A stretch of DNA of 64,000 nucleotides from Candidatus Moraniibacteriota bacterium (lineage in GTDB: Bacteria > Patescibacteriota > Minisyncoccia > Moranbacterales > UBA1568), in assembly GCA_028688415.1 (NCBI GenBank), contig JAQTYF010000001.1, forward strand, positions 464,627 to 528,626, in the 5' to 3' direction. The notes under the pieces are model-generated. The model did not search any database, had not been told where the DNA came from, and was given only the letters and a program-made list of their open reading frames with translations. Below are positions 42,822 to 62,045 of this stretch, one piece after another (within the stretch, counting starts at the first letter, position 1; each line of letters opens with the position of its first letter). Made by a program: the position numbers and the translations under genes.

Positions 42822-44027
42822 TTAAATCATCGACACGTTTTTATAAGCACCCGATTGATACCTACGAGCTATATATAAATATAGCGGAAAAAGTATCACA
42901 AGGAAAATAATTCCTGAATATAAAAATCCGTATTGATAGGATACGCGCTCGATTATGAATCCAACTCCAAAACTTGAAACTACCGAAACAGCCTGATCAA
43001 TTTGTGAACCCGTTGACAACAATGTGGCCTTAAATTTACTTGATTTAATAATATCAAGTCGATAACCCTCATCAATTTTACTTAACCCCCAATGGAATGC
43101 GTTTATGATAATAAAAGCGGTTACAACAACCCACCAACTTGATATCATTCCCAAAACAAGAATTAAAAGAGTATAAATAACAAGTTGAAACCCATAAAAA
43201 GAAGGTAAGGTAAAATATTTTTTAATCTTTCCGCTATACGCAAGCATAAGCGAAGCAAATGCTCTCCCTATACCAAAGAATACCCCGAACCAAATTACAG
43301 GTATTTCAAGAAATGTCTGATAAGGGGCACGGAACCCTCCAATACTAAACAATGTTCCACCAATAATTCCCGAAAACAAAGCAATGCTAAAAAAGTTAAG
43401 GTGATATCCTTCTTGTAATACCTGTCTGAAATTTGTCGCCCCAATTTCTTCAATGTGTTCCTGAGGGACAGGAGGTACCACCAAGGAAATTGCTACCAAT
43501 AATCCAATCACATCAATAACAAAAGCAATCAGAAATGGTGTTTTGTAACTTATGCTCACTAAAAATGGTACCAGCACCATAAATATTATCGGCACCGCAA
43601 ATCCTATAGAACTGATTTTTCCCATCACTCTTGCATAGTCGTGTTCTCTTTTAAGACCTTGTAAAGTTTCGTGCATAAAGGCACTACCTGTACCACTTTG
43701 AAAAGCGGCACTCGCACTCAAAAAAATTGCGCCGAGTATCAAGAAGGAAATGTTATTCGCAAAAAGAAAAAAGACTGTTGACATCAACATCAATACTCGA
43801 GAAATAACTAGCGTTAGTTTATGTCCGATTTTATCAGACATATATCCGCTGGGAATTTCAAAAAGAAAACCAGAAAGACTCCCTGCAAGCAAAATTGTTC
43901 CAATTATTTTTGGTGTTACGTCTGGTATGGTCAGATAGTACGCTCCCAAAACCGCAACAAAAATTCTTTTATTGGCGATTAACAATATGGTGTATTTCCA
44001 AATATTACTTTGTAGATTTTTTTCCAT
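42822..44027 (-). CDS. MFS transporter
   Basis: 401 aa with about 12 TM segments. Confidence 0.7.
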   Translation of the reverse strand: MEKNLQSNIWKYTILLIANKRIFVAVLGAYYLTIPDVTPKIIGTILLAGSLSGFLFEIPSGYMSDKIGHKLTLVISRVLMLMSTVFFLFANNISFLILGAIFLSASAAFQSGTGSAFMHETLQGLKREHDYARVMGKISSIGFAVPIIFMVLVPFLVSISYKTPFLIAFVIDVIGLLVAISLVVPPVPQEHIEEIGATNFRQVLQEGYHLNFFSIALFSGIIGGTLFSIGGFRAPYQTFLEIPVIWFGVFFGIGRAFASLMLAYSGKIKKYFTLPSFYGFQLVIYTLLILVLGMISSWWVVVTAFIIINAFHWGLSKIDEGYRLDIIKSSKFKATLLSTGSQIDQAVSVVSSFGVGFIIERVSYQYGFLYSGIIFLVILFPLYLYIARRYQSGAYKNVSMI

Positions 44028-44100: not shown

Positions 44101-44205
44101 TAGATTCTGTTCTTACTTTCACAGTCAGTATATAAACTTCTCACAAAACGGTCAAAGAAAAGGAAAAAAACCTCTTTGTAGAGATTTTTTCAGATTCGGG
44201 AATTC

Positions 44206-44278
44206 TTGGCGGGAATGCGTTTGTGTCGGCGCGAAGCTATGACCCCATTTCGGCTTCAGATTCCGATTTCCAATTTTG
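44206..44278. repeat. Diverged copy of the 116-bp unit found at 50328-50447 and 51853-51968
   Basis: About 60 percent identity, same orientation as the 51853-51968 copy, and contiguous with the left inverted repeat. Confidence 0.5.
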
Positions 44279-44500
44279 GCGGTGCATATTGGACGAAGTT
44301 CGAATGTATTTCGCCAAAAACCCTGAGTAAGAAAGCGGAAGCCGTCCCCACCGTAGTCCTGAAGCCTCGGGACTCCCCATCAGAAAAACCTTTCTTTGCA
44401 TTTCGGATTTGCGCGCGCCGGATCTTTTCTTCTCTTAAGGAAAAGAAAGCTTTTCTGATGAGGACTGCTCTTTGGAGCAGTGCGGTGGGGAACGGCTGCT
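44279..44500. repeat. Left arm of the 222-bp inverted repeat
   Basis: Reverse complement of 50108-50330 with a single mismatch (221/222). It is GC-rich relative to the surroundings. Confidence 0.9.
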
Positions 44501-44628
44501 ATTGGTACGTCGCCAAGATGGAAATAAACGAGCTTGTAGTTATTCTATCACATCAGACAATATTGAATTTGCTCATTTCTCCATCTTGGCGACGGTACCA
44601 TCCAAGTGAATGGTATTGCGATGACAAT

Positions 44629-45114
44629 TTATTTGCCGAGTTCAACTCGTCTTTTGATATATGAAGTTTGCTTCCTGTACGAGAACAAAAACATCACAAA
44701 AAGCACTGTAAGCAAAATATTTATGCTGTACTTTTCCAAAAATAGACATCGGTAGGAAAATAATTCGTACGCTTTTGCTACCATAAACAAGAAGAACATC
44801 GAAACGAAAGTACGGTACATGTTATTTGTCTCCGAAAATTCCTCAATTTTCGGATCCACTTTTGCGACAGCAACAAAATCAGAATACGACGCAAACTTAA
44901 GAAAGGAAATCCATTTCAAGATAGGCTCAATAGCCAAAGACCCAAACCTACTTATAACGAGACCAACGAAGTAGTAGACGAACGCTCCGATAACCAGATT
45001 TTCTTGTGTGAAAGAATAGGGTGTAAAGCGTTCCAACACTACAACGAAAAGAACACCAGGAAGTAGGTAGTTGAATAGATTATAGGACGTTATCTTGTCT
45101 AAAACTTTTTCCAT
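44629..45114 (-). CDS. Hypothetical 4-TM membrane protein
   Basis: Hydrophobic profile only. Confidence 0.4.
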   Translation of the reverse strand: MEKVLDKITSYNLFNYLLPGVLFVVVLERFTPYSFTQENLVIGAFVYYFVGLVISRFGSLAIEPILKWISFLKFASYSDFVAVAKVDPKIEEFSETNNMYRTFVSMFFLFMVAKAYELFSYRCLFLEKYSINILLTVLFVMFLFSYRKQTSYIKRRVELGK

Positions 45115-45117
45115 AAG

Positions 45118-46170
45118 TTACTCATCTACTTGATTAAAGAAGGTTTCCGGTGCGAGAGGCCCCCAACCATCTCTTTGTGGAGCATCTGCACTAGGATGAC
45201 AAATTGTTTTTCCGTTCCTTGTAGAGCCAGGATTGCAATTTCGACGTATAAGCGCATTGATTACCTTACGTGATGGATGTTTAGGATCGCCCTGTGGTGG
45301 ACACGAGATAAACGCATGAACCGGCATAAGTCGATTCAGTATAGTCGGCCCAAGATTACGTTTACTGCCATGATGTGGAACATCGAGGAAGTCTATTTTA
45401 TTCAAAGAGACATTATTTGCTTCCGCAAAATCAATAGCCCTGCCAAGTGCATCCTTTCCAGCGTCACCAGTAAAAAGGAATTTTTTTCCATCAACGACAA
45501 GCAGTAACACCAAACTGGAATTATTTTCGTGGCTTGTATCTAGGTAGTCGTCTGATAGGGTTTCGATATGCAGTTCCTCCGCGATCCAACCAACTGCCTC
45601 TTTCACCGCACCGATGAACTGTTCAATTTTGTGTTCATCCTTCACTTCTGGTGTCACACCGAAATTAGCAAGGAGTTGCTGGTAATACTCTTCGGTAGGT
45701 CCCAAAATATATAGCCCGTCATGCACCTGTTCTCCCGCGAATGGCTGAACGACCACTACACCCTTCTCAGTGGCCATATCAACGAGATCCGAGAGCATTG
45801 AAAGTGATTTCTCAAGTCGCGTCTCCAGACCCTTTTGTGTCACAGACATGTTCGTCATTTTCTGGATTGCTTTAGTGTAATCCCAAGGACAATGGGCAAC
45901 CAACTTACCGACGGTTAAGTTTTCGAAAACCTCTGAAAGACCAGAGATATGGTCGTTGTGAAGATGTGATGCAACAACAAGGTCAACATATGTCGTTCCA
46001 TAATGTATCTTGATGTGCTCGACAAGTGCCTTGCCCGAATCCTTTGTACCTCCATCTATAACTACAACATTCTGTGTTGTAGGCGAACTGAAATCTCCAT
46101 ACCGAATTGCGATTGCATCACCGCCTTTTTCTCCGATCCCAACTGGGATGTAATCAATCTCATATGCCAT
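45118..46170 (-). CDS. MBL-fold metallo-hydrolase (ComEC C-terminal domain-like)
   Basis: ASHLHNDHISGL (HxHxDH) and VPHHGSKRN motifs. Confidence 0.65.
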   Translation of the reverse strand: MAYEIDYIPVGIGEKGGDAIAIRYGDFSSPTTQNVVVIDGGTKDSGKALVEHIKIHYGTTYVDLVVASHLHNDHISGLSEVFENLTVGKLVAHCPWDYTKAIQKMTNMSVTQKGLETRLEKSLSMLSDLVDMATEKGVVVVQPFAGEQVHDGLYILGPTEEYYQQLLANFGVTPEVKDEHKIEQFIGAVKEAVGWIAEELHIETLSDDYLDTSHENNSSLVLLLVVDGKKFLFTGDAGKDALGRAIDFAEANNVSLNKIDFLDVPHHGSKRNLGPTILNRLMPVHAFISCPPQGDPKHPSRKVINALIRRNCNPGSTRNGKTICHPSADAPQRDGWGPLAPETFFNQVDE

Positions 46171-46245
46171 ATGTTTTTTGTATAATTTGAACTTGTTTAG
46201 GTTAACATTAGGTATTATAATTTAGGTATGGTATACTAGTCAAGT

Positions 46246-46854
46246 ATGAGAATAGAACAGCCATCAAAACGGCAGGCCGAAATACTTGAATTCGTATCTT
46301 TTTTTCGTCAAAAAAAAGGCTACGCCCCTTCTCTGACCGAAATAGCAGCGCATTTTGACGTGTCTGTGCCAACAGTACACCAACATATTGCGTATCTACG
46401 CAAGAAGAACCTTCTCTCGACCGAGAAGGGAAAACAAAGGTCTATACAAGCATTCAACGACCATAATCGTGGCGTCGTTGAAATTCCGCTTATGGGGATT
46501 ATTGCCGCAGGCGGACCGATTGAGGCCATCAGAGACCCTCGTCCTATAGAAGTTCCAAAAAGCATGCTTTCCGCAGGATCGGATTATTATGCCTTGAAAG
46601 TCGCGGGCGTAAGCATGATCGAAGACGGTATTTTTGACGGTGATATCGTTATCGTTCGGGATCAGCCAACGGTTGAAAACGGAGAAAAAGCAGTCGCTTA
46701 CCTACCAGATCAAGATGCGGTTACTCTAAAAAGAATCTATCACGAAAAAAATCGAATCAAACTTGTTCCCGCAAATCAAAAGATGGAACCTTTTTATGAG
46801 ACAAATGTAGAAATTCAAGGAAAGGTTGTTGGTGTGTTGAGAACTGAAAAATAA
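46246..46854 (+). CDS. lexA: LexA repressor (S24 peptidase family)
   Basis: N-terminal wHTH (LTEIAAHFDVSVPTVHQHIAYLRKKNLL), cleavage site AAG, and catalytic GVSM...K of the S24 domain. Confidence 0.8.
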   Translation: MRIEQPSKRQAEILEFVSFFRQKKGYAPSLTEIAAHFDVSVPTVHQHIAYLRKKNLLSTEKGKQRSIQAFNDHNRGVVEIPLMGIIAAGGPIEAIRDPRPIEVPKSMLSAGSDYYALKVAGVSMIEDGIFDGDIVIVRDQPTVENGEKAVAYLPDQDAVTLKRIYHEKNRIKLVPANQKMEPFYETNVEIQGKVVGVLRTEK

Positions 46855-46869
46855 GGCCAAAAAATATCC

Positions 46870-47745
46870 TTATTTTTGCTCTAAAAACTTTCTCAATTCC
46901 TCCTGTCTTTCCTTAAATCCACCAAATTCTCTTTGAAAGTCGGTCTTTTTGTAAAGCTGATATACAAATCCCTTCTCCGTCAAAATTACTCGCGAGTCGC
47001 CATCATTGGAGTTTTCTATTTCTGAATCAAACAACCTTTTTTCTACGTTTTTCTTTTTTGCAAACAACCCCTTAAAAACTTCCCTGCTCATATCAGAAAC
47101 AAACTTATCAAGACCGTTGGCCAAAGCGTTACTTTTCTCAGTGATCTTTTCTTCTAAAGACAGGAGATCCTTCCTCTCATCTTCTATGATGGCTTCATCC
47201 TTCATCAGACTAAGCATAGAATAGCTGCTTAGCTTTCTCTGATATTCCAACAAATCTTCAGCGAAGATTATCTCAAGATCAAAGAGAAACTTCGACTCCC
47301 TATCTATCTTTTCAGAAAACAACGCTTTCCAAAATTGGAAAAATTCGTAGAATATTTGAAAATCAGCCTGAAGATTACTTACTTTTTTACTAAGTTCCTT
47401 GCTATTTCGCTGGAGAGTTTCCGTAGGATAATCATCTGTATTTTTCGGATTACTTTTCTCAAGGAAAAAAGAATTCGTTACAAAAGGACTCAGAGCATAA
47501 AAAGACTTATGTAGTCCATCGACGAGCAAATTTGTTATTTTTTCATGGACATCTAGTTTTTTCTTAAAAGAAATTTCTCTCGTCAAAATAAAATACGTAA
47601 CAAAAAAACCAAATATCAATACAAATGATTGAAACAAAGATGAAAACGCATCCCAATTAAAAGAACTTTCGCTGTTTGAAAAAATCAAGCCGGAAAACAC
47701 GGCTTGAAGTATAAGAATTAATACGAGTAGGATTTTCTCAAACAT
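46870..47745 (-). CDS. Hypothetical membrane-anchored coiled-coil protein
   Basis: Two N-terminal TM segments and a long predicted coiled coil. Confidence 0.4.
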   Translation of the reverse strand: MFEKILLVLILILQAVFSGLIFSNSESSFNWDAFSSLFQSFVLIFGFFVTYFILTREISFKKKLDVHEKITNLLVDGLHKSFYALSPFVTNSFFLEKSNPKNTDDYPTETLQRNSKELSKKVSNLQADFQIFYEFFQFWKALFSEKIDRESKFLFDLEIIFAEDLLEYQRKLSSYSMLSLMKDEAIIEDERKDLLSLEEKITEKSNALANGLDKFVSDMSREVFKGLFAKKKNVEKRLFDSEIENSNDGDSRVILTEKGFVYQLYKKTDFQREFGGFKERQEELRKFLEQK

Positions 47746-47964
47746 ATCGTATTAGTAGGTTACGCATATTTATTATATTGCGTAAGTTCCTTTTTCGAAA
47801 TCTTCCAAATAACTTTCAACTTCTTGAGGAAGTTTTGCAAAAATAGATCAAAGATCAGTCGAGAGCCGTCCTCGGCCAGATTATTATTTCTTCAGAAGCT
47901 TTCTGCATTTTCACACAAATTTATTGGACATATTTATAAAAATACAGCGCTATTACAAAACTTA

Positions 47965-48618
47965 TCATTCTTTAACAACCATCCATTTTTTCTTTTCATC
48001 GCCATACATCACAAAATATATCATCCGCTGTATAACGCCAAAATAGATTGGAAATAGGATGAACCAACTAAAAAATGACACTACCCAACCTACAATCGTA
48101 ATCAGCCTATGCGAAATATGATCATGTCTCACCTGCGGATAAATTAATCTCCACGCCATAAGAATAAATTCCTTAAATCCAATTTTATCCATTGACTCTC
48201 TATTTTTTGCTTTTTGTATTAAAATAATTAGCCGTACAATATCAAAAAATATTCCAAAAAAAACAAAAGTGATAACTACACCCCATATGGGGAAAAAATA
48301 TAAAAATGGCACCCCCACAATAATCCATAAAATTGCAACTCCAAAAAACAAAGATATCAAATTACTATCAAATTTGAATTCTTGAGCATCAAGCGTTGCA
48401 AGTTTTTTAACATTTCTTATTATCCAGTAGCCAATAGAGCTCAATGATAATCCAGCAAAAATAACCCAGATTAAAATATCAGTGAATTTTGAATCTCCTT
48501 TTAAAACAATAAAATAAAAAGCAAGCGAGAGAATAATAATTCCAATGCCTACTATCAATGCTGAGCTTGCAATAAAATGCATACGTGAATACATTTTTTG
48601 AATTCTTTCATTGATCAT
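47965..48618 (-). CDS. Hypothetical polytopic membrane protein
   Basis: Hydrophobic profile only. Confidence 0.4.
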   Translation of the reverse strand: MINERIQKMYSRMHFIASSALIVGIGIIILSLAFYFIVLKGDSKFTDILIWVIFAGLSLSSIGYWIIRNVKKLATLDAQEFKFDSNLISLFFGVAILWIIVGVPFLYFFPIWGVVITFVFFGIFFDIVRLIILIQKAKNRESMDKIGFKEFILMAWRLIYPQVRHDHISHRLITIVGWVVSFFSWFILFPIYFGVIQRMIYFVMYGDEKKKWMVVKE

Positions 48619-48651
48619 ATGTTAAAAAATTTTAATAATTATTAATTGTTA

Positions 48652-49764
48652 CTATTTTTTGCACTGTTTCTGATAATATGGGATTGATTTTACAAAATTC
48701 AATGCTTTTTCATCTATAAGATCTCCCTCATTTTTTGCTATGACCAGTAGAGTTTGAAACAATTGCGCAACTTCCTGAGTTTTTGTCATTCTCGATTGTA
48801 AAGATTTTTCTTCCTCATCATTTAATACATGGTAAACAAACCTTCCCTCTGAAATAAATGCGCTCGCTTCTGCCCTATAACATCCATCTTCAGAATTAAC
48901 ATCTTCATTATTAGCATACTGAAAAACATGAGTTAATTCATGACGCAATAAAACTGCAGTCAATAAATCATCTTTTATGCTGTATTTAGGAGAAACTTTT
49001 ATCAAATATTCATCTAGTGAATGCATAGGAGAAAAAACAAAAACTCCTTCTGCACCATTAATTTCCTTGCTAGATTCTGAATATTCAATTTTGAGACAAT
49101 TTTTGATGCTTTCTAAGCGACCTGACTCCTCGATATTCCCGCGATTTCTGTATCTCTGTTCAATAAGACTTAGCGACCGCTTAAACTCTTCTGACATTTC
49201 ATATCCACTTTCTCTAATACAATAAATAGGTGTTTCATTAAAAACAATCAGCCATTCGTTGTTAATTTTGATAAATTTTCTATATATTCTTTTTGGGTAA
49301 TCCTTATCAGCTAAGTTAAAAATGCTTGTTTCATCAACATGTCCTATATCATTTTTTATAATCACCTTATTTACTTCTACGGTTTTTCCTTTCTTTAAAT
49401 CATTTAAAAATATTTTAGATCTTTCATCTTCTGGATTTTGTTGTGCATACTCAATTAGTCGTTGCAATACTGATTCCTGCGAATATATAGCACCTCGTTT
49501 TTCGATATATTTTTCTCTACTTATTTTATGCTTAGACTCTGGCGATAAATAAGAATCATATATTTTTCCAAAATCATTATTGCTTTCCAATTCAAATATT
49601 TCATTGAATCTTTTGACAAGCTTATCTTCATCACTGATGCTTATTGATTGCTCCTGTTTGTTTTTTAAAAAAGAAAAATTTTCTAATTCATAAAGTTTAA
49701 TATAAACGCCTAAAGCCACTATCAACACTACACTTATTAGGATAACTATCAATTTTTTATTCAT
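48652..49764 (-). CDS. Putative zinc metallopeptidase (HExxH) with an N-terminal TM anchor
   Basis: LRHELTHVFQY motif. Co-oriented with and adjacent to the XRE HTH gene, an ImmR/ImmA-like arrangement. Confidence 0.45.
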   Translation of the reverse strand: MNKKLIVILISVVLIVALGVYIKLYELENFSFLKNKQEQSISISDEDKLVKRFNEIFELESNNDFGKIYDSYLSPESKHKISREKYIEKRGAIYSQESVLQRLIEYAQQNPEDERSKIFLNDLKKGKTVEVNKVIIKNDIGHVDETSIFNLADKDYPKRIYRKFIKINNEWLIVFNETPIYCIRESGYEMSEEFKRSLSLIEQRYRNRGNIEESGRLESIKNCLKIEYSESSKEINGAEGVFVFSPMHSLDEYLIKVSPKYSIKDDLLTAVLLRHELTHVFQYANNEDVNSEDGCYRAEASAFISEGRFVYHVLNDEEEKSLQSRMTKTQEVAQLFQTLLVIAKNEGDLIDEKALNFVKSIPYYQKQCKK

Positions 49765-49773
49765 AAATTTATT

Positions 49774-49971
49774 TTATTTGATTAACTCATCAACACTAAC
49801 CTCAAGCGCTTTAGAAATCTTCTTGAGCGTATCAAGTGTTGGATTTTGGTTTTTACCAACTTCAATCTTGATGATTGTGTTATTGGCAACATCAGCCAAT
49901 CGTGCCAGTTTTTCTTGTGATAATCCCTTGGCTTCTCGTAACTTCCTCAGATTTTTTGTTATATTTGACAT
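49774..49971 (-). CDS. XRE-family HTH transcriptional regulator
   Basis: LREAKGLSQEKLARLADVANNTIIKIEVGK, a classic Cro/C1 HTH; 65 aa. Confidence 0.75.
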   Translation of the reverse strand: MSNITKNLRKLREAKGLSQEKLARLADVANNTIIKIEVGKNQNPTLDTLKKISKALEVSVDELIK

Positions 49972-50107
49972 ACTTATATTATAGTAGTAGAATTATAGTG
50001 TTAGTACTATTTCTTTTCTATTACTTTGATGCTACACCAAAATTTCAGACAAATCAAACTAAATGACTTTTTATGTTATTAGTAAAAATCTATTCCGATC
50101 GTAAATC

Positions 50108-50330
50108 AGCAGCCGTTCCCCGCCGCACTGCTCCAAAGAGCAGTCCTCATCAGAAAAGCTTTCTTTTCCTTAAGAGAAGAAAAGATCCGGCGCGCGCAAA
50201 TCCGAAATGCAAAGAAAGGTTTTTCTGATGGGGAGTCCCGAGGCTTCAGGACTACGGTGGGGACGGCTTCCGCTTTCTTACTCAGGGTTTTTGGCGAAAT
50301 ACATTCGAACTTCGTCCAATATGCACCGCA
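50108..50330. repeat. Right arm of the 222-bp inverted repeat
   Basis: Reverse complement of 44279-44500. Confidence 0.9.
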
Positions 50331-50447
50331 AAAATTCGGAATTCAAAACTGGAGAAGAAATAGCGTCGACGCGTAGCGCCGTCTGTTCTGCATTCCCCCC
50401 ACGAAATCCCCAATCTGAAAGGATTCGCCACGCGGAGCGGGGCTCCT
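50328..50447. repeat. 116-120 bp unit, inverted relative to the copy at 51853-51968
   Basis: About 95 percent identity to the reverse complement of 51853-51968. It is contiguous with the right inverted-repeat arm, so 50108-50447 forms one roughly 340-bp unit. Confidence 0.85.
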
Positions 50448-50466
50448 CGTTTGCCAATGCAATCTT

Positions 50467-52005
50467 ATGAATCACACCAGAAAGTTCTTTATCTATACAC
50501 GAAAGAGTACCGATACGGAAGATCGGCAGGTCAGAAGCATTTCGGATCAACTGGCCGAACTCAAAGAATTGGCGGTAAAAGAAAATATCGAGGTTGTTGA
50601 TGTCTTTGTGGAAAAACAGACCGCCAAAGTCCCCGGCCGACCAGTCTTTAATGAAATGCTTCTACGTATCGAAGCAAATGAAGCGAGCGGGATTTTATCG
50701 TGGCATCCCGATCGTTTGGCTCGAAACTCCGTAGATGGTGGCAAGATCATCTATTTGCTCGATACGGGAAAAATAACCGAACTGAAATTTCCAACGTTCT
50801 GGTGTGATCCGACACCGCAAGGAAAGTTCATGCTCTCCATCGCTTTTTCCCAATCCAAGTATTACGTGGACAATTTGAGTGAAAATATCAAGCGTGGGCA
50901 CCGCAACAAAGTGAAGGATGGTATCTGGCCTCAAATGGCTCCTCTGGGGTATGTAAACGTCAAAGGAAGAGGTATTGCGCCACATCCAGAGCTTGCGCCC
51001 CTCATATGCAAGGCATTTGAGGCCTACGCCACAGGCAACTTCACTTTGCGTCAGATTCGCGAAAAGTTTAACGCGCTTGGATTGAAAGGAAAAAGTACAG
51101 AGCTTTCAGTGTCGAACTATCAGACGATTCTCCATAACCCTATCTACTGCGGATTGATCCGCTACAATGGCGAAATCTACGAAGGTAAGTACGAGCCGAT
51201 TATCCCAAAGAAACTTTTTGATCTCTGTCAGGAAGTGATGACAAGAAAGAGCAAGCCGAAAGGCAAAGGTTTGAAAACATATTTGTATCGAGGATTTTTC
51301 CGTTGCGGAGAATGCGGGTGTTTCATTACAACCGAAACACAAAAAGGTCATAACTATTTGCGATGTACGAAACGGAAAAATCCTTGTTTGCAAAAATATG
51401 TCCGTGAAGAACTCATCACTTCTCAAATTAAAGAAGAAATCAAAAAAGTTTCTTTGCCACTCGATTGGGCAAATTGGATGATTGTCGAAAATGAAAAAGA
51501 CCGACAATCAGAAAATCAACCAAGCGAGCTTTTTGCTCAAAAAACCAAAGATGAAATTTCTCTTTTGGATTCTAAAATTGAGAAGCTGATGACTGCGTAT
51601 TTAGAGAGTGTGCTTTCATTGGAAGAATATCGAACAATGAAAAGCAAGCTGGTCAATCAAAAACAGCTTCTCAAAGAGAAATTGGCTGCTTTTGAGCAAA
51701 AAGCGAATAATCGGTTCGAACTCACTAACAAGTTTCTAAAACTCAATCTGGAAGCCAAGGAATTGGCAAACGAGCGAACAGACGAAGAAAATCTTCATCT
51801 GTTCAAAAAGATCGGTTCGAACTTTATTTTGGAAGCTCGAACCATATCTTTTGAGCCCCGCTCCGCGTGGCGCATCCTCTCAGATCGGGGATTTCGTGGG
51901 GGGAACGCAGAACAGACGGCGCTACGCGTCGACGCTATTTCTTCTCCAATTTTGAATTCCGAATTTTTGCGGAGAGGGAGGGATTCGAACCCTCGAGAGT
52001 TGTAA
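50467..52005 (+). CDS. Large serine recombinase (resolvase catalytic domain, recombinase domain, zinc ribbon, coiled coil)
   Basis: YTRKSTDTEDRQ (catalytic Ser), DRLARN, recombinase domain, CGECGC...C..C zinc ribbon. The ORF reads through the repeat at 51853-51968 and into the tRNA, so the true 3-prime end is uncertain. Confidence 0.85.
   Translation: MNHTRKFFIYTRKSTDTEDRQVRSISDQLAELKELAVKENIEVVDVFVEKQTAKVPGRPVFNEMLLRIEANEASGILSWHPDRLARNSVDGGKIIYLLDTGKITELKFPTFWCDPTPQGKFMLSIAFSQSKYYVDNLSENIKRGHRNKVKDGIWPQMAPLGYVNVKGRGIAPHPELAPLICKAFEAYATGNFTLRQIREKFNALGLKGKSTELSVSNYQTILHNPIYCGLIRYNGEIYEGKYEPIIPKKLFDLCQEVMTRKSKPKGKGLKTYLYRGFFRCGECGCFITTETQKGHNYLRCTKRKNPCLQKYVREELITSQIKEEIKKVSLPLDWANWMIVENEKDRQSENQPSELFAQKTKDEISLLDSKIEKLMTAYLESVLSLEEYRTMKSKLVNQKQLLKEKLAAFEQKANNRFELTNKFLKLNLEAKELANERTDEENLHLFKKIGSNFILEARTISFEPRSAWRILSDRGFRGGNAEQTALRVDAISSPILNSEFLRRGRDSNPREL
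51853..51968. repeat. 116-bp unit immediately 3-prime of tRNA-Ser(GCU)
   Basis: Inverted copy of 50328-50447. Confidence 0.85.
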
Positions 52006-52056
52006 CACTCTACCACGTTAGCAGTGTGGGGCCTTCAGCCGCTCGGCCACCTCTCC
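51970..52056 (-). tRNA. tRNA-Ser (anticodon GCU), long variable arm
   Basis: Reverse complement reads GGAGAGGTGGCCGAGCGGCTGAAGGC..CTGCTAA..GAGGGTTCGAATCCCTCCCTCTCC, with the same layout as E. coli tRNA-Ser(GCU). Confidence 0.8.
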
Positions 52057-52069
52057 TTTTTTGCTTTAT

Positions 52070-53098
52070 CTAAGCCATTTTATATCTTTCCAAGTGTTTC
52101 GGATTATGTGTCCCGACGACCTGAAAATACTTTTCGACATCCTTCCTCGCTTCTATACGTATATCCCAACCATTTTTCATTATGCGGTGTTTGATACCTA
52201 AAATCAAGAGGATCTCACTCGCTGACTGGAGAAGCGGATGTGATCGACTGGTAAAACCAATCTTTTTGTAACAATATCTCTTCCCTTTTGAGAGGTACTT
52301 ATGCAGTATAATACAACCATCAGTATCAATCAAGCCACGCAGGCAAGCAATGGAATAGCACTGATTTTTCTTTACCCATAACGGAATGTCGACTTGTTGC
52401 TTTACTTTGTTCCCCTGCTTCAATCCTAGTTCATCAATAAGATACGTGATGAGAGCAGTTCGTGAGACCATAATACGTTCAGCAAGAAATTTCTTATTCA
52501 GACAAACCCCAAAAGAAACCTCAAAAAGATTGTTGATTAATTGCTGAACAAATATTGAGTACTTTTTATCGGTTAGAGTGTTGAGGGTAATTGTAAATTG
52601 ATGTTTACTTATTCCTCCGTCTCCGAGCATTATTCCGACAAACTCAGCGAGGTCTTCTGACGGTGTCGGTCTCTTGAAAGGAAGTGCTTGAGTAATTTTT
52701 GATGGGTTGAGATGTCCTTCTTTTTCCCACCATTCTCGCCACTTCGTTTTGCGATATTCGGGGTCACCTCCTACGATGCCGTATTTCTTCAGAACTGCTT
52801 TTCCTCCAGCTGATGAACCTTGCTTGGTATACCAATAAGCATCTTTGATAACAATGTTTTCCGGCATTTCTCTTTTTCTTTTCTTGCAAATCTGCTCGAC
52901 AGCAAAAAGTGACATCGAAATTTTTTCATTCCTCCAATCATTGAGATTGCGCACGCTCGTCCCAGCGACTTCCGCTAATTTTTCCCACGTACCAAAAAAT
53001 TCTTCTTTCGATTGCAAAAGAAACTCTTTTTGTTTTCCTTTTGGAAATATAACTCTTTTAGAATTCAACTGTTCAGCCATATCTCCATAATAGCACAA
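52070..53098 (-). CDS. Free-standing double-motif LAGLIDADG endonuclease-like protein with an N-terminal HTH-like extension
   Basis: Motif 1 EFVGIMLGDGGIS and motif 2 LRGLIDTDGCII, spaced about 100 aa apart as in single-chain LAGLIDADG enzymes. Confidence 0.6.
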   Translation of the reverse strand: MCYYGDMAEQLNSKRVIFPKGKQKEFLLQSKEEFFGTWEKLAEVAGTSVRNLNDWRNEKISMSLFAVEQICKKRKREMPENIVIKDAYWYTKQGSSAGGKAVLKKYGIVGGDPEYRKTKWREWWEKEGHLNPSKITQALPFKRPTPSEDLAEFVGIMLGDGGISKHQFTITLNTLTDKKYSIFVQQLINNLFEVSFGVCLNKKFLAERIMVSRTALITYLIDELGLKQGNKVKQQVDIPLWVKKNQCYSIACLRGLIDTDGCIILHKYLSKGKRYCYKKIGFTSRSHPLLQSASEILLILGIKHRIMKNGWDIRIEARKDVEKYFQVVGTHNPKHLERYKMA

Positions 53099-61802: not shown

Positions 61803-61915
61803 ATCTGTTTGTCATTCTTATCCCTATTCAATCAAAACGACAAAGAAGTCTGCCTCTAGAGTATAAACGGATTTTTATTTTTTTCAAAGAAGTTGATATT
61901 TCTCTCAATTCCACT

Positions 61916-61932
61916 GCGGAAGCGGTGAGATT
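61916..61932. repeat. 17-bp direct repeat of the tRNA-Ser(UGA) 3-prime end (att-like)
   Basis: gcggaagcggtgagatt, identical to 61958-61974 inside the tRNA. Confidence 0.7.
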
Positions 61933-61958
61933 TGTTTTATTTTCTTATCCAGTCAAAG

Positions 61959-62045
61959 CGGAAGCGGTGAGATTCGAACTCACGATACCCTTCCGGGTAT
62001 GATAGTTTTCAAGACTATTGCCTTCAACCGCTCGGCCACGCTTCC
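61959..62045 (-). tRNA. tRNA-Ser (anticodon UGA), long variable arm
   Basis: Reverse complement reads GGAAGCGTGGCCGAGCGGTTGAAGGCAATAGTCTTGAAAACTAT..GGTATCGTGAGTTCGAATCTCACCGCTTCCG. Confidence 0.8.

Follow-up and report, generated by a model that had tools for sequence, protein, structure and literature searches.

Why should the gene for a large serine recombinase (LSR), and also the group of genes beside it, be enclosed by long and nearly perfect inverted repeats? We addressed this question for a locus next to tRNA-Ser(GCU) on contig JAQTYF010000001.1 (GenBank assembly GCA_028688415.1) of a Candidatus Moraniibacteriota bacterium. The locus lies in a stretch of 64,000 nucleotides that was analysed as a whole and is referred to here as the window; positions are window positions unless another locus is named. 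A first-pass annotation had offered three options: a DNA-inversion switch, an integrative island at tRNA-Ser, or repeats that are kept identical by gene conversion. Our analysis argues for the island. Positions 44188-51968 most probably represent an integrated mobile island of about 7.8 kb, which belongs to an LSR-driven family of the Patescibacteria and whose repeats are its attachment (att) sites. It is thus an integrative island rather than a demonstrated flip switch.

Nested inverted repeats at tRNA-Ser(GCU)

The repeats are composed of two parts, which we named A (about 222 nt) and B (about 116 nt); A' and B' denote arms in inverted orientation. A repeat search of the window returned one inverted pair of 313 nt with 91% identity (44188-44500 and 50108-50420) and a second of 120 nt with 96% identity (50326-50445 and 51853-51972). 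By exact count, A1 (44279-44500) and A2 (50108-50329) were identical at 221 of 222 positions and B2 (50330-50445) and B3 (51853-51968) at 111 of 116. This agrees with the first-pass annotation, which had described 44279-44500 as the reverse complement of 50108-50330 and a second unit of about 116 bp with an inverted copy flush against the tRNA gene, located at 51969-52056. B1 (44188-44278) shared only 63 of 91 positions (69%) with the corresponding part of B2 (50330-50420). Repeats this long and this identical cannot have originated by chance, and no further copies of the A and B units were found within the 64-kb window. The features of the island and its target are as follows.

44150-44187, minus strand: hairpin and T-run (…AAAAAATCTCTACAAAGAGGTTTTTTT) directly past B1, read from the sequence
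44188-44278, minus strand: B1, B unit of a different subtype, truncated to roughly its first 90 nt out of about 116
44279-44500, minus strand: A1, read as the element arm of attR; 221/222 identical to A2
50108-50329, plus strand: A2, left arm of a putative internal attP-type site; its last 50 nt or so are kept family-wide and end in CACCGC
50330-50445, plus strand: B2, right arm of the putative internal, intact attP-type site; apparently part of the recombinase 5' leader
50467-52005, plus strand: large serine recombinase gene, with 512 codons in the integrated state; Pfam domains Resolvase, Recombinase and Zn_ribbon_recom
51813-51844, minus strand (tRNA strand): terminator-like hairpin and T-run just past B3, antisense within the 3' coding region of the recombinase gene
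51853-51968, minus strand: B3, read as the arm of attL that the element contributes; on the tRNA strand it serves as tRNA 3' trailer
51969-52056, minus strand: intact tRNA-Ser(GCU) gene (ARAGORN and Rfam, 51.3 bits), flush with B3

Along the minus strand the tRNA comes first, followed by B3, the recombinase gene (antisense), B2'A2', cargo, A1 and B1. The steps from tRNA to B3 and from A1 to B1 are co-oriented, whereas the step from A2 to B2 is opposite. The sequence thus directly contains a second complete A/B unit (A2/B2; the slash marks a junction), inverted and placed between cargo and recombinase gene, and for this reason the recombinase gene and the cargo both lie between long inverted repeats.

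A recurrent layout among Patescibacteria

We scanned a species-genome collection (one genome per species) and found 386 loci encoding a relative of the recombinase. The best 80 of these were analysed, with 87 recombinase copies that form the base of most counts below; surveyed loci carry L-numbers (L002-L091). The layout A'-cargo-A/B-recombinase-B'/tRNA-Ser recurred in dozens of independent Patescibacteria assemblies, and every element retained its own complete, inverted second A/B unit between cargo and recombinase gene. B' was followed by tRNA-Ser in 69/87 copies, with the anticodons gga, cga, tga, gct and act represented, and upstream of B we found A in 58 copies, a real tRNA-Ser gene in five and the contig end in 17. 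Both A copies were present in 25 elements. There A measured 82-273 nt (188-273 nt in 24 of the 25), the two copies within an element were 95-100% identical, mostly 100%, and the cargo spanned 1.5-6.3 kb. Three long contigs (L002-L004) showed the same nested inverted repeats at 97-100% identity with differing cargo, and in each an XRE-type gene was divergent from the recombinase gene. The nearest relative of the window element (L006, 88% identity) is located at tRNA-Ser(gga) and the window element itself at tRNA-Ser(gct). At divergent tRNA-Ser(gct)/(act) pairs the occupied gene was act in L026 and gct in L045, L071 and L038.

The same design was found with a sister LSR of 40.5% identity, which converges on a transfer-messenger RNA (tmRNA) gene in L026 (9428-11813) and is accompanied by inverted repeats of 152 nt, the upstream arm ending in a mimic of the tmRNA 3' end (…CTCCAC). 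The design is therefore old and has been kept across at least two recombinase lineages. We found no description of this element family in the open-access literature.

Many carrier contigs ended inside A or B (loci L006-L085), and several carriers are filed as Bdellovibrionales, Gammaproteobacteria, Bacteroidota, Actinomycetota or Lentisphaerae. Assemblies are probably broken up by the element, which may also contribute to mis-binning or mislabelling.

Junctions and half-sites

The boundaries between units were exact and of three kinds: tRNA…CTCCGC/B, A…CACCGC/B and A…CACCGC followed by the native tRNA flank. Locus L004 illustrates all of them, with the inner A/B junction …CAACAAACACCGCC/AAAATTCGGAATTC (in short A…ACACCGCC/AAAATTCGG), the tRNA/B junction …CCTCCTCCCTCCGCC/AAAATTCGGAATTC (tRNA…CCCTCCGCC/AAAATTCGG) and the outer A/flank junction …CAACAAACACCGCC/TGAAGACTTTTTATG (A…ACACCGCC/TGAAGAC…). 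The flank past the outer A was unrelated between genomes and in several loci held a hairpin and T-run, as a native tRNA terminator would; in L002 it resembled the flank of tRNA-Ser(gga) of the same genome. This pattern points to a conservative crossover between A/B of the element and tRNA/flank of the chromosome, giving tRNA/B and A/flank. The tRNA end and the A end share just CCGC at the junction, and since the following base differs between A/B and A/flank of one element (e.g. L046, L010), the crossover is placed inside CCGC. Apart from relics of earlier elements, no direct repeats flanked the island and there was no target-site duplication.

The half-sites were also informative. TTCGAA (or TTCAAA) was located at -21 in 66/68 tRNA sides, where it is the T-loop, and at -26 in all 47 A/B and all 27 A/flank sides. 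For serine integrases, a motif contacted by the zinc-ribbon domain has been described at positions 16-24 of the attP half-site and 5 bp nearer the centre in attB, and only attP x attB pairs synapse (Rutherford et al., PMC3783163). The shift by 5 bp thus marks the tRNA end as a B-type and the A end as a P-type half-site, and TTCGAA might be the motif bound by the zinc-ribbon domain of the island enzyme. The 3' end of tRNA-Ser(GCU) (…GGTTCGAATCCCTCCCTCTCCGC) is accordingly the attB-type left half-site of attL. We read A/B as attP, tRNA/B3 as attL and A1/flank, in the window A1/B1, as attR, an assignment drawn from junctions and spacing. It supports the earlier option of an integrative island, with an attP-type A/B unit and with ends that are the recombinant tRNA/B and A/flank. 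The earlier statement that the repeats fit neither pattern known for serine recombinases has to be softened, as the part conserved across the family is about 50 bp around A/B and resembles a standard att site of 40-50 bp.

The end of A2 (CACCGC) mimics the tRNA-Ser 3' end, and the rest of A2 is variable and rich in hairpins. We considered A as a tRNA-like or tmRNA-like RNA and rejected this, as TTCGAA in A has no pairing T-stem and its spacing is off by 5 nt; for these two reasons A reads better as a DNA half-site.

The recombinase and its open-ended gene

The recombinase has a resolvase-type N-terminal domain (Pfam PF00239, 3.6e-19, residues 8-153) followed by C-terminal domains PF07508 (5e-14) and PF13408, a zinc ribbon (3.5e-07). 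R12 and S14 of its N-terminal YTRKST motif were invariant across 18 aligned homologues. The integrase family phrog_95 matched residues 1-458 (2e-78), and the DNA invertase family phrog_125 matched the catalytic domain only. Length and position are the basis for assuming a coiled-coil insertion. In the PDB there was no full-length match at E<=1e-3, with weak matches to the catalytic domain only. Identity to phage serine integrases, TP901-1 Int included, was 26-28%, and no relative was found among IMG/VR viral contigs; on these two grounds a phage or prophage origin was rejected. We propose that the enzyme catalyses attP x attB recombination.

A protein search yielded upwards of 7,000 homologues, of which the best 120 were 76-100% identical (76-89% without the query itself) and their source names included Moranbacteria, Minisyncoccia, Pacebacteria and Shapirobacteria; an identical protein is recorded in the Candidatus Moranbacteria metagenome-assembled genome (MAG) GCA_028699965.1.

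A property that the first-pass annotation had missed is that the open reading frame (ORF) has no stop codon of its own and continues across B3 and on into the tRNA gene, in antisense. About 462 codons are unique sequence and the tail is encoded by B3 and antisense tRNA, the plus strand of B3 encoding about the last 39 recombinase codons. Nearly all aligned homologues read through a conserved tail, …FEPRGAWR…GGN…LNSEFWRRxRDSNPR, the end of which corresponds, as reverse complement, to CCA plus the acceptor stem and T-arm of a tRNA. The genes of most relatives thus abut a tRNA likewise. After excision or a flip of the module the ORF would stop 15 codons into A' (…LRCILDEVRMYFAKNPE, then stop), giving 517 aa, and L029 displays the state with the ORF ending in A'.

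Upstream of the recombinase gene, promoter-like sites were located as follows.

49965-50020, both strands: divergent promoter-like sites, on the plus strand TTGACA-17-TAGAAT directed into A2-B2-recombinase, on the minus strand a site for the XRE gene

The plus-strand site (49965-49993, a consensus match alone) points into A2, and reading the alignment of L002-L004 we found a -10-like element just upstream of A. This suggests that A2-B2 may be the leader at the 5' end of the recombinase mRNA. Towards the 3' end of the gene, GGTTCG…CGAACC followed by T4-6 occurred at the same place in 80/87 recombinase copies. In the window this hairpin (51813-51844) is likely a replacement terminator for the tRNA, supplied by the element. 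We also considered antisense silencing of the recombinase by tRNA read-through, an idea that is weakened by the conserved terminator-like hairpin right after B3.

An older relic at the left end

The first-pass annotation had regarded the sequence next to A1 as a diverged third copy of the 116-bp unit. B1 does adjoin A1; it is not a diverged form of B2 and B3, being 87-91% identical to B units of five other loci (L061, L070, L076, L077 and L080). Intact tandem arrays with the order tRNA/B-E2-A/B-E1-A/flank were found in L035, L007 and L038. From these two observations we conclude that B1 is what is left of an older element belonging to another subtype, and that the present element entered the attL of its predecessor. 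The island may be the latest arrival in a tandem array that has decayed. The hairpin and T-run at 44150-44187 is either the displaced native tRNA terminator or a piece of the older relic; analogous structures were seen at several other A/flank junctions. In L038 (900-14400), three tandem elements occupy one tRNA-Ser(gct). They are separated by identical spacers of about 190 nt, each made up of a flank-like stretch and a 20-nt fragment of the tRNA 3' end, and one of the elements has an A repeat of 433 nt.

Beyond the hairpin lies a gene whose homologues are cargo elsewhere.

42822-44027, minus strand: MFS transporter gene beside the island

Between 44082 and 42838 it was about 90% identical at the nucleotide level to a gene found between A' and A, or beside rec'-B'-A', in the metagenome contigs L088-L091, the homology ending 16 nt short of the stop codon. 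The gene may be leftover cargo of the older element. GC content was 34-37% at 41-44 kb, compared with 37-47% in the rest of the window outside the island.

A model for integration and what weighs against it

We propose that the island would insert by recombination of its own attP-type A/B unit with an attB composed of the 3' end of any tRNA-Ser and the downstream flank. Crossover inside the shared CCGC would produce attL (tRNA/B3) and attR (A1/flank, here A1/B1). The tRNA would be kept intact with B3 as its 3' trailer, and the tRNA transcript probably ends at the hairpin and T-run in the recombinase gene. Recombination or gene conversion may keep the two A/B copies alike. The internal site appears to be recombinationally active and might now and then capture another tRNA-Ser, thereby rearranging the chromosome. 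Inversion of either segment would take place, though rarely or under counter-selection, and a flipped recombinase gene would have the tRNA promoter directly upstream of it. The model assumes excision and a circular form.

Several points weigh against this model. We saw no circular or excised form, identified no candidate recombination directionality factor in the cargo, and in a metagenome scan with the neighbouring MFS protein found no orthologous unoccupied locus that would represent the empty tRNA-Ser(GCU) site. The right half-sites (start of B, flank) had no clean symmetric motif, only a loose (A/T)TCG(G/A)A at +5, +11 and +17. Since the MFS gene is cargo elsewhere, it is uncertain where the island ends on its left side. 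Canonical serine integrases need a single attP of about 50 bp. The model does not explain the duplicated, inverted copy of 340 bp, nor why an exposed attP is tolerated although the genome has further tRNA-Ser genes, including one at a distance of 10 kb (61958-62045). Equivalent attP sites moreover predict equal recombinase orientations; the ratio seen was about 69:5, and selection or bias has to be invoked. Two abundant clusters (P0027, P0086) were examined as free circular copies and rejected, being chromosomal contigs broken in the upstream repeat.

Inversion isomers and alternative explanations

Isomers of the layout do exist. In L039 the cargo is flipped, so that its XRE gene, 98.5% identical to that of L008, adjoins the outer A. 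In L016 and L029 the recombinase gene is co-directional with the tRNA and downstream of it, with B'/A' at its 3' end; these two arose either by inversion in situ or by integration through the other attP. In L030, L050 and L062 the module has a real tRNA-Ser gene on either side and the junctions are exact, the layout expected from recombination between the internal attP and a second attB, which indicates that the internal site is active. Counted in consensus assemblies rather than reads, the canonical orientation was present for 23/24 cargo segments and about 69/75 recombinase modules. The cargo was inverted once among the 24, the module twice among about 75, and five of about 75 were flipped or rearranged.

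A further reading, which we hold to be unlikely, is that the internal inverted attP is no passenger and is the working part of a new LSR behaviour: the LSR would exchange B arms between tRNA/B (attL) and A/B (attP), and since this yields the same two site types the reaction would be freely reversible. The recombinase gene would flip itself between a silent state, converging on the tRNA behind the embedded terminator, and an expressed state downstream of the strong tRNA promoter. Excision and integration would then be decided by DNA inversion without a classical directionality factor, and the paired inverted sites would also permit exchange of cargo cassettes between elements.

That the main function of the locus is an inversion switch, the first option of the first-pass annotation, is improbable. 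The recombinase or host recombination would flip the B2-B3 module, the A1-A2 cargo or both, and thereby toggle the recombinase between its own promoter and tRNA read-through, or toggle cargo expression. Both segments are indeed bracketed by near-perfect inverted repeats, and isomers exist in L039 (cargo) and in L016 and L029 (recombinase module). A terminator-like hairpin follows B3 on the tRNA strand in the canonical state, while after a flip the tRNA would read straight into the recombinase gene, and exchange of B arms between tRNA/B and A/B would restore the same site types and be reversible in principle. The skewed orientations reported above, with the canonical state dominating, nevertheless leave the switch weakly supported. 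The enzyme is an LSR of 462-512 aa and not of the small-invertase type, and a switch leaves the tRNA/B and A/flank junctions and the tandem arrays unexplained. Published rules for LSRs, furthermore, permit attP x attB synapsis alone (PMC3783163).

We consider it very improbable that the locus consists of two elements with terminal inverted repeats (TIRs) of their own, an insertion sequence (IS)-like B-recombinase-B' beside a non-autonomous A'-cargo-A. Such a composition would account for the three loci (L030, L050 and L062) where B-recombinase-B' lacks A and is enclosed by a pair of tRNA-Ser genes, for a contig of its own formed by A'-MFS-A in L088, and for the shuffling of A types and B types relative to each other. 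The first of these observations is equally explained by inversions between the internal attP and a second attB, and assemblers yield short repeat-bounded contigs at inverted repeats anyway. The two parts were adjacent in 58/63 informative loci, the module ends always abutted the tRNA-Ser 3' end or a mimic of it, and the rest of the window held no solo copies of either part; nor was there a target-site duplication. The outer termini (3' end of A, 5' end of B) share no relationship, the inverted repeats lie inside the island, and all copies were located at tRNA-Ser ends or mimics, none of which is the arrangement of an IS or TIR transposon.

Hardly credible, finally, is that the repeats are an assembly artefact (fold-back chimera, collapsed repeat), a generic dispersed repeat or a structured RNA gene: many MAG contigs do end inside A or B, and the units do fold strongly (z-scores -2.2 and -3.1) with 13 of 25 predicted pairs in A compensatory, but more than 20 independent assemblies from varied assemblers and habitats share both nested pairs, one of them a 993-kb contig deposited as a chromosome (OY969413.1), which rules out misassembly; a fold-back cannot create B1, which is of a different subtype; and the units had no Rfam match even at E<=10 and occurred solely next to this recombinase, contrary to what the first-pass annotation had proposed as grounds for doubt.

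Concerted evolution and folding of the repeats

The A sequences fell into four groups that are barely alignable outside the last 50 nt or so, and one hairpin of L014, the one with the conserved loop TTCCTCCCCAGACCCCTCC, has the opposite orientation to that of its relatives, both A copies (100% identical) carrying the inversion. Together with the identity of copies within elements, these observations point to concerted evolution of the two A copies of an element, in line with the earlier suggestion that gene conversion keeps the repeats identical (A 95-100% within an element). One A type was joined to several B types among the loci, from which we infer that crossovers at the junction shuffle modules.

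The compensatory changes, determined in 14 related A sequences, could equally reflect selection on a folded leader RNA or template-switch correction of DNA palindromes. Neither A nor B had an Rfam match at the gathering threshold. Motifs in hairpin loops of A were noted in L004, L008, L010, L014, L034 and others, and in L002 and L069. One is the conserved C-rich motif TTCCTCCCCAGACCCCTCC with two CCUCC units, which occurs in either orientation among elements and is lacking in the A of the window. A second A loop carries CCCCAGA(A/C)AAATTGTT, and the stems covary. The B units of all loci contain a short hairpin with a GAA loop (GTCGGCGC-GAA-GCGCCGAC), e.g. at 9895-9920 in L004 and about 50365-50390 in the window. 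Its stem changes compensatorily between subtypes even though the other strand encodes the recombinase tail, so structure rather than peptide seems to be conserved here.

Cargo and neighbouring genes

The cargo of the window element comprises the following genes.

44629-45114, minus strand: PDC-M48A membrane protein (PADLOC, 1e-62)
45118-46170, minus strand: PDC-M48B MBL-fold protein (PADLOC, 1.4e-77)
46246-46854, plus strand: LexA-like S24 repressor
46870-47745, minus strand: 291-aa protein, no assigned function
47965-48618, minus strand: 217-aa membrane protein, no assigned function
48652-49764, minus strand: 370-aa protein with HELTH motif, no assigned function
49774-49971, minus strand: XRE-type helix-turn-helix regulator (Pfam HTH_3, 1e-17), first cargo gene, divergent from the recombinase gene

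PDC-M48A and PDC-M48B are a candidate anti-phage defence pair. An HTH_3/XRE protein was found in at least 16 of 23 other complete elements scanned, and a gene like the XRE gene of the window adjoined the inner A in every canonical locus mapped. In the complete elements scanned nearly all cargo genes were located on the tRNA strand. The cargo of other elements included an HpaII-type restriction-modification pair, Fic, RadC, a D-Ala-D-Ala ligase (Ddl) and a cytochrome d1 protein, among others. Such variable accessory content is typical island cargo, and no phage structural or conjugation genes were seen in the 4-8 kb island. The half of the window cargo nearest to the XRE gene (47000-50000) had about 30% GC, compared with about 42% in the whole window. 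The cargo is probably a mosaic of differing origins.

Directly upstream of tRNA-Ser(GCU) we found a free-standing ORF resembling LAGLIDADG homing endonucleases (52070-53098, minus strand, 342 aa, PF14528, 7e-09), which has 336 aa and a slightly different start in the source record. The 3'-terminal 17 nt of the unoccupied tRNA-Ser(UGA) gene (61958-62045, minus strand; region about 61915-62045) recur as a direct repeat (AATCTCACCGCTTCCGC) some 26 nt downstream of it. This repeat looks like the scar of an earlier integration or excision, or like a secondary att site.

Comparison with known systems

The island resembles the LSRs of phages and integrative and conjugative elements (TP901-1, A118/LI, Bxb1 and phiC31 type) in its resolvase N-terminal, recombinase and zinc-ribbon domains, in short asymmetric att sites whose shared motif lies 5 bp nearer the crossover in the host-type half-site, in the lack of target duplication and in its hybrid attL and attR. 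It differs from them in an enzyme that is just 26-28% identical, in a carrier of only 4-8 kb in which phage structural and conjugation genes were not seen, in targeting the end of every tRNA-Ser isoacceptor, in a gene without its own stop codon and in the second, inverted attP of 340 bp.

In staphylococcal cassette chromosome elements (SCC, i.e. SCCmec and relatives), the LSRs CcrAB or CcrC move small cargo cassettes into the 3' end of a conserved gene, with arrays, relics and module shuffling. The island is similar in its small LSR-moved cassettes and in tandem arrays and relics at one site. SCC in contrast target rlmH/orfX and not a tRNA, and their flanking inverted repeats are short; to our knowledge no internal inverted copy of the attachment site has been described for them.

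Islander-type islands and the tycheposons of Prochlorococcus are likewise variable-cargo islands and arrays at tRNA 3' ends. They overwhelmingly use tyrosine integrases and make the tRNA whole again by means of a duplicated 3' fragment, so that they are flanked by direct repeats, whereas our island has a serine integrase crossing at the very tRNA end and long inverted repeats.

The Hin, Gin, Cin and Pin switches share with the island a segment between inverted sites and a recombinase gene inside or beside it, and the island shows rare isomers. They employ enzymes of about 190 aa and 26-bp sites plus an enhancer, have both orientations in common use and do not integrate. Like the yeast 2-micron plasmid with its FLP recombinase, an excised island circle would carry two long inverted repeats and two unique segments, one with the recombinase gene; FLP is however a tyrosine recombinase whose substrates are the repeats themselves and which thereby amplifies copy number, and no replication function was evident in the island. 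LSRs are not known to us to recombine attP with attP. For the integrase of pTN3 from Thermococcales, recombination of the element att site with other tRNA genes, which inverts parts of the chromosome, has been reported (PMC5495485). This resembles the rearrangements that we propose for L030, L050 and L062, although pTN3 is archaeal and its integrase a tyrosine recombinase.

Implications for Patescibacteria

The breakage of contigs inside A or B explains a recurrent problem in the assembly of MAGs. The retention of an inverted attP, also in the tmRNA-targeting sister, is unaccounted for by current models of serine integrases and poses a biochemically testable question. Organisms belonging to the Candidate Phyla Radiation (CPR) largely lack genetic tools, and a compact integrase with a predictable landing site (any tRNA-Ser end) in every CPR genome is a potential one. 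For the Patescibacteria themselves, the island represents a very common mobile element, with its relatives encoded at 386 loci, whose ends are exact and whose target and cargo slot are defined. Recombinases that are 76-91% identical across the classes of the phylum point to recent horizontal spread, in a group whose routes of gene flow are poorly known.

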